Assembly (NCBI GenBank): GCA_041640035.1
Contig: JBEQBC010000001.1
Coordinates: 128,001-192,000, forward strand
DNA from: Candidatus Nanohaloarchaea archaeon
Lineage (GTDB): Archaea; Nanohalarchaeota; Nanosalinia; Nanosalinales; Nanosalinaceae
Direction: 5' to 3'
DNA: 64,000 nucleotides
Both the position numbers and the translations under genes were made by a program. Positions 21,280-28,270 of this stretch are shown in pieces (the first letter of the stretch is position 1; each line of letters opens with the position of its first letter). The notes under the pieces are model-generated. The model made no database searches, was not told the DNA's origin, and saw only the letters and a program-made list of their open reading frames with translations.

Positions 21280-22695
21280 TCACCCTTTGAACCATTCAGA
21301 GCCGTCTTCAGAGTCCTCTATCTCGAAACCAAGTTCCTGCAACCGGTCACGGATCAGGTCACTTGTCTCGTAATCCTCCTCTTCACGAGCCTCATCCCTC
21401 AGCTCGATTAGTTTATCAGCAAGAGAGGACTCCTCCTCTGATATCTCGGGATTTACATCTACTCCGAGGATGCCGAAAAGCTCTTCCAGGGTCTCAGCGA
21501 CTTCCTCGCCAGGTTTTTCTCCTTTCTCGATGCTGGAGTTAACCTGTTTAACGAACTTCATCAACGCCTGTTTCGCTCTCGCTGTGTTCAGGTCGTCATC
21601 CATCTCTTCCTCAAAACTTTCTCTCACCGTTTCTGTATCTATATCGGCGTCGCCAGGATTTCTCCTGATTTTCTGTACCGTGGTTCTGACCTTTTCCAGC
21701 TCCTTCTCAGCTTTTTCAAGTCCTTCGATACTGAAATCGCTTTCAGTACGGTAATGAGTGCTGATTAGGTACAGCCGGATTACATCTCCGGAGAAACCTT
21801 TTTCCAGAAGTTCTCTAACTGTGTAGAAGTTGCCTTCACTTTTACTCATCTTTTCTCCTTCGACCTGGATGAACTCGTTGTGAAGCCAGTATTTTGCCTG
21901 TCCTTCTCCGCTTGCCGCGAATGCCTGTGCGCGTTCATTCGGGTGGTGTGGGAAGATATGGTCTTTTCCTCCGGCGTGGATATCGAACAGGTCTCCAAGG
22001 TACTTCTGGCTCATGACAGAACATTCGATATGCCAGCCCGGGTAGCCGACTCCCCACGGGCTCTCCCATTTCATCAGGTGGTCTTCGTCTGCGTTGATCC
22101 ATAATGCGAAGTCGTACTGATTTCTCTTATCGCTGTCGTGTTCTACACGGGCTTCGGCTTCTTCCTTCAACTGTTCTAGGTCCTTGTTCGCCATCTCACC
22201 GTACGGATAGTCTTCCGCGAATTTCTCCACATCGAAGTAGACATTGCCGTCGACCTCGTAGCCGTAACCGTTCTCTATTATCTTTTCAACATAATGAATC
22301 ATTTCGTTGATGTGGCCGGTGGCGCGAGGCATGATATCCTGCCGTGGGACATTGATCGCCTGTGTGTCTTCGAAGTATCTTTCTATCTGGTCTTCTACCA
22401 GTTCCATAGGCTCTAATCCCATCTCTTTAGCTCGTTTCTCGACCTTGTCCTCTCCCTGATCTCCATCATCTGTCAGGTGTCCTACATCGGTGATGTTCTG
22501 GATATGCCGGACCTTGTAGCCTTTCCACCGTAGGTACCGTGTCAGTGTGTCCCATGCTGTGTAGGCTTTGGCGTTTCCGATATGCAGGTCGTCGTAGATT
22601 GTCTGCCCGCAGCTGTAGAACCGTACTTTTCCTTCTTCTATAGGTTTGAATTCTTCTTTCTCCCGTGTCAGCGTATTGAATAGCTTTAAAGTCAT
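21280..22695 (-). CDS. cysS: Cysteine--tRNA ligase
   Basis: YSCG.T, HIGN, PGWHIECS, DIHAGG.D..FPHH.NE, KMSKS. Confidence 0.97.
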   Translation of the reverse strand: MTLKLFNTLTREKEEFKPIEEGKVRFYSCGQTIYDDLHIGNAKAYTAWDTLTRYLRWKGYKVRHIQNITDVGHLTDDGDQGEDKVEKRAKEMGLEPMELVEDQIERYFEDTQAINVPRQDIMPRATGHINEMIHYVEKIIENGYGYEVDGNVYFDVEKFAEDYPYGEMANKDLEQLKEEAEARVEHDSDKRNQYDFALWINADEDHLMKWESPWGVGYPGWHIECSVMSQKYLGDLFDIHAGGKDHIFPHHPNERAQAFAASGEGQAKYWLHNEFIQVEGEKMSKSEGNFYTVRELLEKGFSGDVIRLYLISTHYRTESDFSIEGLEKAEKELEKVRTTVQKIRRNPGDADIDTETVRESFEEEMDDDLNTARAKQALMKFVKQVNSSIEKGEKPGEEVAETLEELFGILGVDVNPEISEEESSLADKLIELRDEAREEEDYETSDLIRDRLQELGFEIEDSEDGSEWFKG

Positions 22696-22746
22696 TTTAG
22701 TTCAGCTCCGAGCAGTGATATATCTAGGTTTAGAAGTCGCAGGTTT

Positions 22747-22782
22747 TCAAATGTGCCGTGGACAAAAACGATCACTGCTCAT
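22747..22782 (-). promoter_or_regulatory. Candidate leaderless leader-peptide uORF (MSSDRFCPRHI) upstream of cysS
   Basis: ATG lies 25 nt after TTTTTAAC; contains a Cys codon; overlaps one arm of a 10-bp inverted repeat. Confidence 0.5.
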
Positions 22783-22807
22783 ATACTTTGACTTTCTTCT
22801 CTTGAAT

Positions 22808-22823
22808 GTTAAAAATCCTTTTC
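22808..22823 (-). promoter_or_regulatory. BRE/TATA promoter of the cysS transcript
   Basis: GAAAAGGA-TTTTTAAC on the minus strand; same box and spacing as upstream of ileS. Confidence 0.6.
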
Positions 22824-22869
22824 ACCTGCGCAACGGTTTTTTATCCAGCTTAGAGTAAAAACTCTGCAA

Positions 22870-24243
22870 ATGGTTTTCCCCGCGGTTGAAGGATTCCAAT
22901 TGACAGGATTTCTGATGGAGAGAGGTATCGGCCTCGTCTACCTCCTGGCATTCCTAGTTTTCTACCGCCAGTACCCTGCACTCGTAGGAGAAAACGGTTT
23001 AGAACCGCTGAAAGAAGGAAATGAGATAAGGAAATACTTCAGTATATTCTACTACCTCCAGAAAGACTGGTTCCTCAAAGCCTCAGCAATAACCGGAGTA
23101 ATCCTTTCGACCATTGTTTTATCAGGTCTAACAGAGCTCCTTGGATATAATATCCGTATCATAGTATTTGTTTCTCTATGGATCCTGATCGTATCTTTCA
23201 TCAACTCCGGTGGTATCTTCACAAGGCCTGGCTGGGAGACGATACTGGCGGAAACAGGGTTCATCGCGATCTTCCTGGGAGGTTTATCCTACCAGACGCC
23301 GGATGTAGTTGTATGGATGTTCCGTTGGGTACTTTTCAGGATGATGCTAGGTTCAGCCATAGTGAAGCTTCGAGGAGGAACTGAGTGGACGGATCTGGAT
23401 GCGTTAAAGAATCATTTTGAATCGCAGCCCTTCCCCGGCCCGTTCAGCTACTACCTGAACAATCTTCCTGAAAAAGTACTGGAGTCTGGAGCTGTAGTGA
23501 TGCAGTCAGCTATGATGTTTCTTCCGCTCCTCTACTTTATGCCACAGCCATGGGCAGCGATAGCCGGTTTATTCACTCTTTTGATTCAGTTGATGATCTT
23601 CCTTAGCGGGAACTACGCATGGCTGAATGTAATCACATCGGTGCTAGTCCTGAGTACATTTGATGACAGTATAATATCGTCTTTGACAGGTATTTCTGCT
23701 GGATCAGCTGTTTCAAATCCTTTATCCGGTACAGCAACTTTGGCAGGTCTTTTGATTCTTGTTTTAAGCATCAATCCTGTGCTTAACTTCTTCTCTCGTG
23801 ACCCACATCAGAATATGAGTTACAATCCGTTGCATCTCGCGAACTCATACGGTGCATTCCCGGATGTGACAGAGAATCATAGAGAAATAATTATAGAAGG
23901 GTTTATCGACGGCGAATGGAGGGAATACAAGAATCACAGTTCTTTCAGAGAACAAGAGAGTAGAAATGTTCAGATAGCGCCCTACCAGCACATGATGGAG
24001 TATCTTATGTACTTCCAAGTACACGGCAAGACACCTGATGATCAGTGGCTGGATAAACTACTGGAGAACCTTTTAGAGAGCGACAAGAATACAGAGAGCC
24101 TCTTTGAATCAAAACCTGATAAAGATGACAATCCAGAGAAGATAAGAGCTGTAGAATACATTTACAGATTTGATTACAGTAAATGGGAAATATACTGGGA
24201 AAGAGAATCAGTTCAGGTTCTCAAACAGAAGTCAAGAGACTAG
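22870..24243 (+). CDS. Lipase maturation factor (LMF1) family membrane protein
   Basis: LVGENGLEP, GWETILAETGF, RWVLFRMMLGS..VKLR, HFESQP.P, SGNYAWLN, NSYGAF. Confidence 0.85.
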   Translation: MVFPAVEGFQLTGFLMERGIGLVYLLAFLVFYRQYPALVGENGLEPLKEGNEIRKYFSIFYYLQKDWFLKASAITGVILSTIVLSGLTELLGYNIRIIVFVSLWILIVSFINSGGIFTRPGWETILAETGFIAIFLGGLSYQTPDVVVWMFRWVLFRMMLGSAIVKLRGGTEWTDLDALKNHFESQPFPGPFSYYLNNLPEKVLESGAVVMQSAMMFLPLLYFMPQPWAAIAGLFTLLIQLMIFLSGNYAWLNVITSVLVLSTFDDSIISSLTGISAGSAVSNPLSGTATLAGLLILVLSINPVLNFFSRDPHQNMSYNPLHLANSYGAFPDVTENHREIIIEGFIDGEWREYKNHSSFREQESRNVQIAPYQHMMEYLMYFQVHGKTPDDQWLDKLLENLLESDKNTESLFESKPDKDDNPEKIRAVEYIYRFDYSKWEIYWERESVQVLKQKSRD

Positions 24244-24722
24244 TAATCTACCGGTTCTCCAAACTCCAGGTCCTTCCAGAAATCTACTTTATCTTTATCC
24301 GGCACATTCAGTGACAGGAAAATTCCATGTGTTACGGCCATACTTTCTTGCTCAGCTTCTTTCAGGAATTTTTTGAACCGTTCTTTCACCTCTTCTTGGT
24401 CTTCCCAGTCGGCCTCTGATCTCCCTGAGAGGTAGTCTTCAACCAGTTCGATGTAACGGTCGTGGTCTTCCACGAATCCTTCTTTGCTGCGGTCGACTTC
24501 GCACAGCAACTGTGTTTTGACCAGTTCTGCATCCGCTTCTTCTGCTATCTTTTCAGCGGTCTTTACTGCTTTGGGTTCTGTGCTTGTGTATACTTTGTCT
24601 ATGTTGAAGCTGTGGTTTTCCACAAATTCTTGACTTGCCTGTTTGCCTTCTTCTGACAGCTCCCATTCCGATACAGGTGTTTCAGGTTCTACTTCTGTCT
24701 GGAAATGCCGTAGAAATCTCAT
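24240..24722 (-). CDS. Histidine phosphatase superfamily protein
   Basis: FLRH, LSEEG..QA, S.E.KA..TA, VTHG. Confidence 0.85.
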   Translation of the reverse strand: MRFLRHFQTEVEPETPVSEWELSEEGKQASQEFVENHSFNIDKVYTSTEPKAVKTAEKIAEEADAELVKTQLLCEVDRSKEGFVEDHDRYIELVEDYLSGRSEADWEDQEEVKERFKKFLKEAEQESMAVTHGIFLSLNVPDKDKVDFWKDLEFGEPVDY

Positions 24723-24727
24723 TTTCT

Positions 24728-25171
24728 CTAGAAAGGTGCTTTTTTGACTTTTTCAAGGAACTGAGACTGGTTTTTCCGGTCTCTAAGTCTCTGTGCTTCT
24801 CCGCTGTGTACATAGTCCTTTAGTTTGTCTGGTCCGACCCATTTTACTTCTTTGAGGTCGTCCAGTGCTTCTGCGTTTTTGGTTTCTGCTTCGCAGTGGA
24901 ATACTATCTGTAAGGAGTCTTTTTCTTCTCCGTCCCATGGAAAGGTCATGACATCGACGGTTTGATGTACTTCTACTTCCAGGCCGGTTTCCTCTTCTAC
25001 TTCTCTTTCGATCGCTTCCTCAACCTGTTCTCCGTGTTCGAGGTGTCCGCCAAGAAGATGCCATTCCTCGCTTATCGGGTGTCCAGGTGTTTCTTCCTTT
25101 TTTCCTATCAGGAACTCTCCTTTATGTGTTATCAAGCCTTTGACCACGGTTCTGAATTTTTCTTCACTCAT
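24728..25171 (-). CDS. NUDIX hydrolase
   Basis: Nudix box GGHLEHGEQVEEAIEREVEEETG. Confidence 0.92.
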   Translation of the reverse strand: MSEEKFRTVVKGLITHKGEFLIGKKEETPGHPISEEWHLLGGHLEHGEQVEEAIEREVEEETGLEVEVHQTVDVMTFPWDGEEKDSLQIVFHCEAETKNAEALDDLKEVKWVGPDKLKDYVHSGEAQRLRDRKNQSQFLEKVKKAPF

Positions 25172-27947: not shown

Positions 27948-28199
27948 GGAAAAAATTTGAGACTTGATTTTTACATATGTAAATATCTTCCATTGGAGGA
28001 TAGTCTACATACGACTCATTATGAAAAATAGTTCTCTTTTTGTGAATAGTCGGATTTACCTGTATCTTCTTTTTTGAAACTTTTTTGGTACTACCTCAAA
28101 TAATTATTTCGTCTGTTATTCTCAGAAATACAATTAGGTTATAATATCATCGGATGTCAGCCTCACAAACCTTGAAAACCTTAAATTCCGACAGAAGAG

Positions 28200-28270
28200 A
28201 GCCGGGACAGGGATTTGCACCCTGGTAGGCGGCTTTGCAGGCCGCTGCATAACTCCTCTGCCATCCCGGC
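28200..28270 (-). tRNA. tRNA-Cys(GCA)
   Basis: Acceptor GCCGGGA/TCCCGGC, U73; anticodon arm GCGGC-CTGCAAA-GCCGC; T arm CAGGG-TGCAAAT-CCCTG. Confidence 0.95.

Follow-up and report, generated by a model that had tools for sequence, protein, structure and literature searches.

The cysS locus and its leader

The window analysed here is a stretch of 64,000 nucleotides from a Candidatus Nanohaloarchaea archaeon. On its minus strand, positions 21280..22695 hold cysS, the gene for cysteine--tRNA ligase (Pfam PF01406; NCBIfam TIGR00435, 486 bits against a cut-off of 340), whose start codon is kept in 28 relatives. Promoter P1 (22808..22823, minus strand) comprises the TATA box TTTTTAAC (22815-22808) and a purine-rich stretch (22823-22816), which the original prediction had taken for a BRE. 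After TTTTTAAC follow 25 nt and then, at 22782-22780 of the same strand, the ATG of a leaderless short open reading frame (sORF; 22747..22782, minus strand), which reads ATG AGC AGT GAT CGT TTT TGT CCA CGG CAC ATT TGA and encodes MSSDRFCPRHI in the 0 frame. The tRNA-Cys(GCA) gene of the window (28199..28270, minus strand), identified by ARAGORN and from its sequence, has a TATA-like box of its own and lacks such an sORF.

The TATA box, the 25-nt gap, the 11-codon sORF, the 10-bp inverted repeat and the SD-like motif that had been predicted for this minus-strand leader are all confirmed. The claimed parallel with ileS is borne out as well (TTTTAAC followed by 25 nt, with an identical AGTAT-ATG context), and so is the similar layout of the divergent LMF1-like gene, in which TTTTTTAT at 22837-22844 is followed by 25 nt and an ATG at 22870. 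Genome-wide, the A+T content peaks at -31 to -25 before the ATG of long ORFs, and a TTTA[A/T] weight matrix peaks at the same place, which shows that the leaderless layout is common in the source genome. P1 scores 9.1 with the genome-derived TATA matrix and starts at -34 from the sORF ATG, within the genome-wide peak.

Several short elements lie between the sORF start and cysS, all on the minus strand. An SD-like AGUGAUC (22770..22776; mRNA nt 7-13), which includes an invariant GUG and is complementary to the 16S 3' end, precedes the UUU codon at 22765..22767, the putative P-site (shift) codon. This is followed by the UGU specifier codon for Cys (22762..22764), the proposed hungry A-site codon, with C as the next base. 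Further downstream are the UUCUAAAC box (22728..22735) and an SD-like GGAGCTGA / GGAGCUGA (22702..22709), placed 6 nt before the cysS ATG at 22695. Two of the frames close early, the 0 frame at 22749-22747 and the -1 frame 37 nt ahead of cysS. From the specifier codon on, the +1 frame has no stop (22692..22763) until a UGA that overlaps the cysS start codon in an AUGA at 22695-22692.

The inverted repeat consists of a 5' arm, GAGCAGTGAT / GAGCAGUGAU (22771..22780, minus strand), and a 3' arm, ATCACTGCTC / AUCACUGCUC (22710..22719, minus strand), which are complementary at all 10 nt (100%) and 51 nt apart. Of 500 shuffles, 1 gave an equal or better helix joining the 5' end to the remainder of the leader (p 0.002), and the whole leader folds with -21.8 kcal/mol (z -2.1). 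The strongest argument against chance is conservation in relatives. In leaders of the MSS type the GCUGCU(C/U) arm is kept and the stem recurs with exchanges between U-A, U.G and C-G and between A-U and G-C; an ungapped helix search with shuffles did not recover it in Cys leaders of the MKGG type. Only 8 of 21 Cys leaders have a helix with a shuffle p of 0.05 or less. As judged by this search, conservation of the stem is confined to a single lineage of Cys leaders. The MAFFT alignment is out of register in the 5' arm of G058, G001 and G020 and in the 3' arm of G019. Leaders as a class are not unusually stable either: over 43 leaders with 25 shuffles the mean z was about 0 and a single leader fell below -2, and a general structured leader was rejected on these values. 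Opening of the stem had been predicted to free the ribosome-binding region of cysS; the stem itself does not extend over the SD-like motif.

A leader family with a common cassette

Homologous sORFs with the motif MSS[D/G]RFC or MKGGRFC occur in 26 of the 70 genomes of the phylum, 15 of them directly before cysS and 11 before tRNA-Cys. All are leaderless and carry an in-frame Cys codon after (D/G)R(F/V); equivalent TATA boxes lie at the same distance in the 21 homologous Cys leaders, as read from 20 of them (all but G010). All indels in the stretch from the ATG to the Cys codon have lengths divisible by three (0, +6, +12 nt). The 16-mer RGTGRNCGTTTTTGTC is present in exactly one copy each in 18 of 70 genomes, and its reversed control gave one match in total. 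A conserved cysteine-decoding sORF upstream of cysS, which the original prediction had proposed to look for in relatives, thus exists, and it always precedes cysS or tRNA-Cys. At tRNA-Cys-type loci, cysS follows downstream on the same strand in 7 of 11 cases (G032, G004, G052, G013, G009, G015 and G040). Peptide length (9-30 aa) and sequence after the specifier codon are not conserved, and several Cys sORFs carry 2-6 Cys codons.

The same arrangement extends beyond cysteine. A cassette (A/G)GUG(A/G)N-NGU-KUU-X is common to the leaders of several synthetase genes, and X is always a cognate codon of the synthetase downstream, which holds for eight amino acids (Gly, Ser, Thr, Tyr, Val, Pro, Lys and Cys). 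In genome G000 the cassette precedes 7 of 19 synthetase genes, named by NCBIfam equivalog models as cysS, lysS, proS, glyS, thrS, serS and valS, and the codon after KUU is Cys, Lys, Pro (at two sites), Gly, Thr, Ser and Val, respectively; in G022 a Tyr codon precedes tyrS. Of the two proS sites, the second (KGGRV-Pro) is in the +1 frame relative to the first. Searching 185,579 species genomes for ATGAARGGTGGAYGTTTT gave 109 stretches. Among the 80 of these that were listed, 34 have the leader layout, and all 34 are codon-matched (8 Gly, 9 Ser, 11 Thr, 4 Tyr, 1 Val and 1 Cys), with the synthetases typed by likeness of their N-termini to verified proteins. A single cognate codon at a fixed place is thus the rule of the family, and the reservation that the cysS sORF has only one Cys codon falls away.

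The cysS leader represents cysteine in a modular family of leaderless sORFs that is found across the phylum. The counts given for this family overstate independence, as many leaders are related to one another. The GUG is invariant in 64/64 aligned leaders at 9-11 nt before X, and (A/G)GUG(A/G)NY, a putative stimulator, occupies -12 to -6 from X in all 64. KUU precedes X in 63 leaders, the exception being GUC at the first proS site of G000, and C directly follows X in 47/64. U stands at the third codon positions -10, -4 and -1 in 64, 61 and 63 of the 64 leaders, while the encoded residues vary (G/S, G/D/E, R/C/D/H) over fixed nucleotides. The constraint on the cassette acts on the RNA and not on the peptide. 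The GUG motif is complementary to the 16S 3' end ...GGAUCACCUCC, which was read in four relatives, as the 16S 3' end of G000 was not found in the G000 assembly. Two further features recur closer to the synthetase: counterparts of the UUCUAAAC box (AAAAC/AAACC) in 29/43 leaders (about 4 expected), at a median of 41-42 nt before the synthetase start, and SD-like words before that start in 35/43 leaders, compared to 303 of 872 long ORFs genome-wide.

The promoter layout inside the leaders deserves separate mention. A fixed internal promoter before the synthetase start was rejected: the best TATA-matrix matches are scattered from -89 to -22, and 4/43 score 8 or more. Good boxes at -32 to -39 in G019, G005, L204 and L167 make a second promoter possible in these leaders. 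TATA-like words inside some leaders (G019, G005) could give rise to transcripts without the sORF, which counts against the frameshift reading set out below.

Reading frames and the decoding of the leader

In 43/43 leaders, the +1 frame read from X meets no stop until it is close to the synthetase start, at -12 to +10 nt, whereas the 0 frame reaches this region in 0/43 and the -1 frame in 2/43. The mean probability of the +1 frame staying open was 0.275 in shuffles. In 20/43 leaders the stop begins at +1, 1 nt past the first base of the start codon (an AUGA- or GUGA-type overlap). The distance from X to the start ranges from 60 to 117 nt and is a multiple of three in 33/43. In 7 of 10 evaluable tRNA-type Cys leaders, the +1 frame crosses tRNA-Cys together with its intron and continues to the start of the next gene; in G032 it extends over 337 nt to the AUGA of cysS. 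The remaining 3/10 break the rule, which speaks against a reading by frameshifting.

Leaders of the Leu type parallel this pattern. In 14/29 of them the +1 frame ends in a poly-Leu run, which is found in 0/29 in the other phases, and in G015 the +1 frame leads without a break into a GATase ORF. Two Leu-type leaders of G000 precede non-synthetases (GATase and a 576-aa protein without family), which counts against the frameshift reading; apart from GATase, the proteins behind Leu-type leaders matched no Pfam or NCBIfam family.

In our view, each leader of the family probably senses one charged tRNA by means of a programmed +1 frameshift at a hungry codon, which would feed ribosomes to the synthetase start. 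For cysS, the spacing suggests a transcription start about 25 nt past the TATA box, at the sORF AUG itself. A ribosome would translate six codons; at that point (A/G)GUG(A/G)NY can pair with the 16S 3' end, with UUU/GUU in the P site and the specifier (here UGU, Cys) in the A site. When Cys-tRNA is plentiful, decoding would proceed in the 0 frame and terminate after 11 codons, 54 nt before cysS. When Cys-tRNA is scarce, the empty A site would permit a +1 shift, and the shifted ribosome would read the open frame through the leader and terminate at the UGA overlapping the cysS AUG (AUGA). It would be delivered there for reinitiation, having cleared the 5'/3' stem en route and possibly having protected the transcript, with more CysRS at low charging as the expected outcome. 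Clearing of structure may be dispensable in general, given that the leaders are not unusually structured, and the synthetase genes could also be translated without coupling, given the SD-like words of their own.

The possible re-pairing in the P site differs among contexts. After a +1 slip it would be perfect for UUU-U (Cys, Tyr and Ser) and poor for UUU-A, UUU-G and GUU-C, and the poor cases count against a frameshift. UUU never precedes C among the 64 aligned leaders, in which GUY is found instead, and a possible UUU-CU case lies outside them (G064). Transcriptional slippage at the T run was rejected as a source of the shift: the runs comprise only 4-5 T and are missing in the GUU variants.

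The alternative that survives best is stalling without frameshifting, a generalised form of the original prediction, which we regard as unlikely. A ribosome paused at the specifier codon would cover the mRNA 5' end and thereby alter the folding of the leader, or keep a termination or degradation factor away from the nascent RNA, with more cysS or tRNA-Cys as a result; the open +1 frame would be a by-product or serve another purpose. The cognate codon and the leaderless layout fit such classical leader-peptide sensing, for which the poly-Cys leaderless sORFs of mycobacteria, as described in 10.1101/834739, are a precedent. The poly-Cys sORFs of G009, G040 and G034 (6 Cys in 22-25 residues) likewise resemble classical attenuator leaders. 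The model can work with a downstream tRNA gene and can make use of the 5'/3' stem kept in MSS-type leaders, but this stem is missing in the MKGG type, there is no general excess of structure, and no terminator-like site is seen. Stalling leaves unexplained why the +1 frame, and hardly ever another, is open to the start in all 43 leaders, why poly-Leu occurs in the +1 frame of Leu leaders, and why synonymous positions are invariant. The specific form of the model, in which a stalled ribosome unmasks the ribosome-binding site of cysS, is not supported: the +1-frame rule favours frameshifting and coupling instead, and in the 11 genomes where the element precedes a tRNA gene there is nothing to unmask, as a tRNA gene has no ribosome-binding site. 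Taken as a whole, the original interpretation is partly supported. A bacterial-type terminator was rejected for 22600-22950, where a scan that covers archaeal termination signals only partly, as these differ from bacterial ones, returned no terminator-like site.

Two overlapping upstream ORFs are a further, quite improbable, explanation. The 5'-terminal AUG would open a short 0-frame ORF and the GUG 7 nt on a +1-frame ORF coupled to the synthetase start, and occupancy of the first would modulate initiation on the second. Independent initiation at the GUG is compatible with the ORF structure, since this invariant triplet (64/64) sits in the +1 frame, which is open from there to the synthetase start. 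The regulation would, however, have the wrong sign, because a ribosome stalled at X would hide the GUG and lower synthetase production upon starvation. The GUG moreover stands at a fixed distance from X, but its distance from the 5' end varies (some leaders are N-terminally extended by 2 to 8 codons), has no SD of its own, and is surrounded by purine-purine and pyrimidine-pyrimidine swaps that fit pairing with rRNA.

The strongly conserved N-terminal block might instead suggest a functional micropeptide, an operator bound by a protein, or a promoter-proximal element, so that decoding would play no part. This we consider very improbable, since peptide length and post-X sequence vary, residues of the block change over fixed nucleotides, and X tracks the downstream gene. 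Least credible of all is a direct, T-box-like sensing of tRNA by the RNA, in which the specifier pairs with the anticodon of an uncharged tRNA and another segment reads its 3' end: the single specifier codon does match the synthetase and UGGA within GGUGGA could pair with the UCCA end, but the specifier is always in frame with the 5'-terminal AUG with indels in multiples of three, UGGA is constant across amino acids and missing from MSS-type Cys leaders, neither an Rfam match nor a terminator/antiterminator is seen, and the +1 frame is unexplained. The Rfam searches covered the cysS leader (E up to 10) and nine other leader-bearing loci (gathering score) and yielded no T-box and nothing else relevant. 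A T-box-like contact between GGAGC or UGGA and the 3' end of the tRNA was rejected separately: the motif does not vary with the discriminator base, and neither tRNA-type nor MSS-type leaders contain it.

Implications and comparison with known systems

On the whole, we lean towards the view that the Nanohaloarchaeota have an analogue of the T-box regulon that works through translation: a portable leaderless cassette (SD-like GUG motif, spacer, UUU or GUU and one specifier codon) would answer the shortage of any chosen aminoacyl-tRNA with a +1 frameshift. After the shift, the ribosome is proposed to be carried to the cognate synthetase start, in some lineages through a tRNA-Cys gene and its intron. 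Proposed variants of the cassette are serial sites (proS), parallel sites (Ile or Val plus Leu), fusion to poly-Leu and fusion to a coding gene.

To our knowledge, no control of archaeal aminoacyl-tRNA synthetase genes that is specific to an amino acid has been described, and neither such control nor a published description of the leader family was found in the full-text literature searched. If correct, our reading would provide the first case of such control in this domain, as well as the first regulon in nature that relies on frameshifting at hungry codons. Frameshifting of this kind is known mainly as a starvation error and would here act as natural sensor and effector. A host-dependent symbiont phylum would monitor at least nine charged tRNAs with one reusable module, whose specificity could be reprogrammed by one codon change, making it a useful biosensor part. 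For annotation, the sORFs and the frames that cross tRNA genes are invisible to gene callers.

A close functional parallel is the autoregulatory +1 frameshift of RF2 (prfB), where an SD-like element lies 5' of the shift codon and a slow A-site codon is the sensor; frameshifting rises when the factor reading this codon is scarce, and the output restores the factor. The leaders described here likewise combine a short 0-frame ORF that ends early, an SD-like motif at a short fixed distance from the putative shift codon, a proposed A-site sensor codon, a +1 frame open to the output and a proposed restoring output. In contrast to RF2, which has a stop codon as its sensor, the proposed sensor is a sense codon read by an aminoacyl-tRNA, one cassette serves for at least 9 different codons, and the new frame mostly ends at the start of a separate gene, which suggests coupling, with the G015 GATase as an exception. 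The mRNA is furthermore archaeal and leaderless, and the frameshift is proposed from sequence.

T-box leaders of bacterial synthetase genes share the regulatory logic and the modularity, with one specifier codon cognate to the downstream gene and many amino acids served, whereas the present family also precedes other genes (Leu type). It differs in being archaeal, in having its codon in a translated frame, and in the lack of a model match and of a terminator/antiterminator. Leader-peptide attenuation, of which the pheST leader is an example, is similar in that a ribosome on the leader ORF reads the supply of the cognate charged tRNA. In mycobacteria, poly-Cys leaderless sORFs are described in these terms (10.1101/834739), and some of the relatives studied here also have poly-Cys sORFs. 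The norm in our leaders is nevertheless a single cognate codon, at a fixed site of a conserved cassette in all of them, alternative hairpins with an intrinsic terminator are not seen and the stem is lineage-specific, and the +1-frame architecture has no counterpart in attenuation.

A precedent, by analogy, for a leader-ORF frameshift that activates a downstream gene is ermC, in which, according to PMC5009743, ketolides cause frameshifting on the leader ORF, ribosomes enter the intergenic spacer and the downstream gene is initiated. Induction of ermC comes from an antibiotic that acts on the ribosome and takes effect by unfolding mRNA structure (PMC5009743), whereas in the nanohaloarchaeal leaders the proposed inducer would be a lack of the cognate charged tRNA, with the start codon itself as the end point of the new frame.

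The cysS leader and its relatives

The elements that the original prediction placed upstream of cysS are all present in the window at the predicted coordinates. On the minus strand, a box TTTTTAAC (22815-22808) stands exactly 25 nt before the ATG (22782) of an 11-codon sORF read as MSSDRFCPRHI (stop 22749-22747), the arms GAGCAGTGAT (22780-22771) and ATCACTGCTC (22719-22710) form a perfect inverted repeat, and 6 nt separate an SD-like GGAGCTGA (22709-22702) from the cysS ATG (22695). Pfam and NCBIfam TIGR00435 matches identify cysS, whose start codon is kept in 28 relatives. The same layout, a box with 25 nt between it and an ATG, is seen at ileS, as had been claimed, and also at the divergent LMF1-like gene (22870). 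Throughout the genome of the window (G000; 978,572 bp, 24 contigs, 45% G+C), the A+T content before the ATGs of 872 long ORFs is highest at -31 to -25, where the maximum of a TTTA[A/T] matrix likewise falls; from both peaks, leaderless transcripts would seem to be common in this genome.

The LMF1-like gene (PF06762, PF25179; 22870-24243, plus strand, the neighbourhood also including 24240-25171, minus strand) separates cysS from the NUDIX and histidine-phosphatase genes, which in relatives are directly upstream of cysS within a tRNA-Cys...cysS string. This suggests that the ancestral string was apparently broken in G000, the sORF remaining with cysS. The tRNA-Cys of G000 (28199-28270 in the window, 5.5 kb upstream of cysS) has its own box and no sORF.

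We read the upstream regions of cysS loci from 40 relatives and added an exact-word search, a 16-mer search and a sequence-only covariance model. Homologous Cys sORFs occur in 26 of the 70 genomes of the phylum in the collection, directly before cysS in 15 and before tRNA-Cys(GCA) in 11; seven of the latter loci have cysS downstream on the same strand (genomes G032, G004, G052, G013, G009, G015 and G040). The 16-mer RGTGRNCGTTTTTGTC is found exactly once in each of 18 genomes, and its reversed control has one match in total. The peptides read MSS[D/G]RFC[P/L]... (MSS-type) or MKGGRFC... (MKGG-type). Insertions between the ATG and the Cys codon (+6 and +12 nt) keep the frame, while sequence and length (9-30 aa) are variable downstream of this codon; a second Cys (CPCH) is present in many sORFs, and six Cys in those of G009, G040 and G034. 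A TATA-like box lies about 25 nt before the ATG in 21 aligned Cys leaders. By this comparison the predicted Cys-containing uORF is conserved and tied to cysteine decoding.

At loci L066 (G032) and L068 (G051), a second copy of the first ~15 bases of tRNA-Cys stands upstream of that gene, followed by a conserved segment of ~40 nt. ARAGORN (with -i) gave tRNA-Cys introns of 48-84 nt in G004, G032 and G052; the tRNA-Cys of G009, without an ARAGORN call, was identified by eye, and Rfam at gathering score did not call the tRNAs in L065 and L066.

The predicted stem stands for one of the two classes. In MSS-type leaders an arm further downstream is paired with the 5' end, with shuffle p of 0.002 (G000, G004), 0.006 (G024), 0.018 (G008, G019), about 0.03 (G052, G010) and 0.044 (G023), and of 0.05-0.2 in the others (G050, G013, G058, G020, G001, G003, G045, G005). 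The pairing survives base exchanges, the seventh pair being U-A, U.G or C-G and the ninth changing from A-U to G-C, and the four changes between G000 and G004 all lead to wobble pairs. The stem was not found in MKGG-type Cys leaders (shuffle p 0.3-0.9), and leaders as a class are no more stable than their shuffles. We interpret this pattern as indicating that the stem is a real, lineage-specific addition, which may make repeated initiation at the 5' AUG less frequent, or keep basal initiation at cysS low until a ribosome shifted into the +1 frame passes.

A cassette before synthetase genes

Weaker matches of the covariance model have the same MKGGR(F/V) start, another seventh codon and another synthetase gene. 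In G000, a cassette (A/G)GUG(A/G)N-NGU-KUU-X (K, G or U; X, the specifier codon) precedes seven genes named by NCBIfam equivalog models above cut-offs, namely cysS (MSSDRF-C), lysS (MTGDRF-K), glyS (MKGECF-G), thrS (MKGGCF-T), serS (MKGGDV-S), valS (..AKGGCF-V) and, with two sites, proS (MNGGCV-P and ..KGGRV-P). They are seven of 19 synthetase genes, a set made up of cysS and those that nine Pfam searches of the genome located; the cassette is absent from the other twelve, and for at least six of them (ileS, tyrS, gluS, argS, leuS, pheS-alpha) a TATA-like box stands about 25 nt upstream of the gene's own start. MKGGRF-Y precedes tyrS in the related genome G022. Two class IIa genes are close together in G000 (contig C1:201644-202849 and C1:204382-); the bacterial-type proS (TIGR00409) has the leader, and the neighbouring class IIa gene, a 511-aa open frame matching PF00587, has none.

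Scanning one genome per species (185,579 species) with the word ATGAARGGTGGAYGTTTT gave 109 stretches. Among the 80 of these listed, 34 combine a short 0 frame (that of the sORF) with a long ORF starting at the +1 stop, and in all 34 the seventh codon fits the downstream gene, typed by the likeness of its N-terminus to NCBIfam-verified proteins (8 Gly, 9 Ser, 11 Thr, 4 Tyr, 1 Val, 1 Cys). The 34 are in records titled nanohaloarchaea or uncultured archaeon, bar one titled Colwellia MAG, and the bacterial matches among those listed lack this layout. Motif-bearing records carry the titles Nanohaloarchaea, Nanohalobium or Nanosalina. Two contigs (L197, L171) of one MAG titled Colwellia polaris, a gammaproteobacterium label, hold nanohaloarchaeal-type cassettes (MKGGRF-Ser before a serS-like gene, and MKGGRF-His) and are probably mis-binned.

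Among 64 aligned leaders (34 chosen by the ATGAARGGTGGAYGTTTT word, 30 not), the GUG at -11 to -9 from X is invariant, its flanks show purine-for-purine changes at -12 and -8 and pyrimidine-for-pyrimidine changes at -6, and U occupies the third codon positions -10, -4 and -1 in 64, 61 and 63 leaders, respectively. The encoded residues vary despite the fixed bases (G/S, G/D/E, R/C/D/H, F/V), and C directly follows X in 47 of the 64. Judged from this alignment, the constraint on the cassette acts on the RNA. The element (A/G)GUG(A/G)NY is complementary to the 16S rRNA 3' end, ...GGAUCACCUCC, as read in four relatives, the G000 copy being absent from the assembly. UUU before a codon beginning with C occurs in none of the 64, GUU or GUC standing there instead; a search for cassettes with a Leu codon as X (Leu-type) gave GUU before CUN in nearly all matches, with one possible UUU-CU case (G064).

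Reading frames of the leaders

Synthetase starts were located independently via N-terminal peptides for 43 leaders, many of which are mutually related, so that the counts overstate independence. From X onward, the +1 frame meets no stop in any of the 43 until one at -12 to +10 nt of the start codon. In 20 leaders, stop and start overlap (AUGA/GUGA-type), the stop beginning 1 nt past the first base of the start codon. The 0 frame gets that far in none of the 43 and the -1 frame in two; the mean probability of an open +1 frame in shuffles is 0.275. The distance from X to the start is 60-117 nt and a multiple of three in 33 leaders. In the window, the 0 frame ends 54 nt and the -1 frame 37 nt before cysS, and the stop of the +1 frame is the UGA within AUGA (22695-22692). 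In Cys leaders before tRNA-Cys, the +1 frame crosses the tRNA gene and intron to at most 14 nt from the next gene start in 7 of 10 evaluable cases, and spans 337 nt to the cysS AUGA in G032; the rule does not hold in G013, G009 and G034.

In proS, the second site (KGGRV-Pro) lies in the +1 frame of the first. The G000 leader (C1:201442-201646; L116:442-646) has MNGGCV-Pro and then ..KGGRV-Pro in series. The second cassette includes an AUG in its frame, with GAGGU lying 7 nt before it, and the GUGA at the proS start closes the +1 frame of this cassette. The arrangement looks like a two-step gate.

The Leu-type cassette GGUGGAYGCGUU-CUN has 54 matches in 38 of the 70 genomes (control, 2). A poly-Leu run closes the +1 frame in 14 of 29 Leu-type leaders (loci L244-L270 in relatives; C1:237984 and C1:220127, minus strand, in G000), and any other phase in none of the 29. 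Such serial proS sites and poly-Leu runs are difficult to account for if the +1 frame is not read.

In 12 of the 14, the run lies ~100-160 nt before small proteins without a known family; at L251 no small protein could be located, and at L255 the one called is 11 nt. Of the two leaders in G000, one stands before a GATase and the other before a 576-aa protein without a known family; other Leu-type cassettes precede a GATase or 390-576-aa proteins without a Pfam match. In G015 (L256, contig C8), the +1 frame of the Leu-type sORF runs uninterrupted into the GATase ORF, 727 nt without a stop, and the GATase could therefore be made as a trans-frame fusion. At L246, L247, L248, L267 and L270, a single sORF has two same-frame cassettes, SGG(C/R)F-Ile or -Val and then KGGCV-Leu; either of two branched-chain amino acids would then elicit a response.

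A proposed +1 shift and known systems

Taken together, the cassette and the frame features lead us to favour, with moderate confidence, a +1 shift at a hungry A-site codon. Scarcity of the cognate charged tRNA would leave X hungry in the A site, and the ribosome would slip +1, assisted by the SD-like element at a fixed short distance upstream; the shifted ribosome would terminate and then reinitiate at the synthetase start. SD-like words stand before this start in 35 of 43 leaders, compared with 303 of 872 long ORFs genome-wide. The frameshift reading has weak points: many X allow only poor re-pairing once the ribosome has slipped, GUG could serve as a start codon of the +1 frame, and the synthetase genes could be translated independently.

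Leaderless poly-Cys attenuators of mycobacteria, to which the original prediction refers, do exist, according to the available excerpt of 10.1101/834739. Full-text searches returned no description of such synthetase leaders among the matches listed, and the accessible portion of a recoding review (PMC8211752) has no passage on them.

An AAAAC/AAACC box, often UUCUAAAAC, is present in 29 of 43 leaders where about 4 are expected, lying ~41 nt upstream of the synthetase start without keeping to one frame; the cysS leader has a similar one at 22728-22735. It resembles a weak TATA box, and TATA-matrix hits fall inside leaders at no fixed distance; the role of the AAAAC/AAACC box may be that of a weak internal TATA box or of a signal in the RNA.

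In the autoregulation of bacterial RF2, an SD-like element lies a short distance upstream of a +1 shift, and the GUG motif of the cassette would parallel this at its own fixed short distance. Sensor frameshifting, ermC, pheL and RF2 are covered in the available part of PMC5009743, according to which a frameshift in the ermC leader ORF with ketolides takes ribosomes into the spacer and turns on the next gene.
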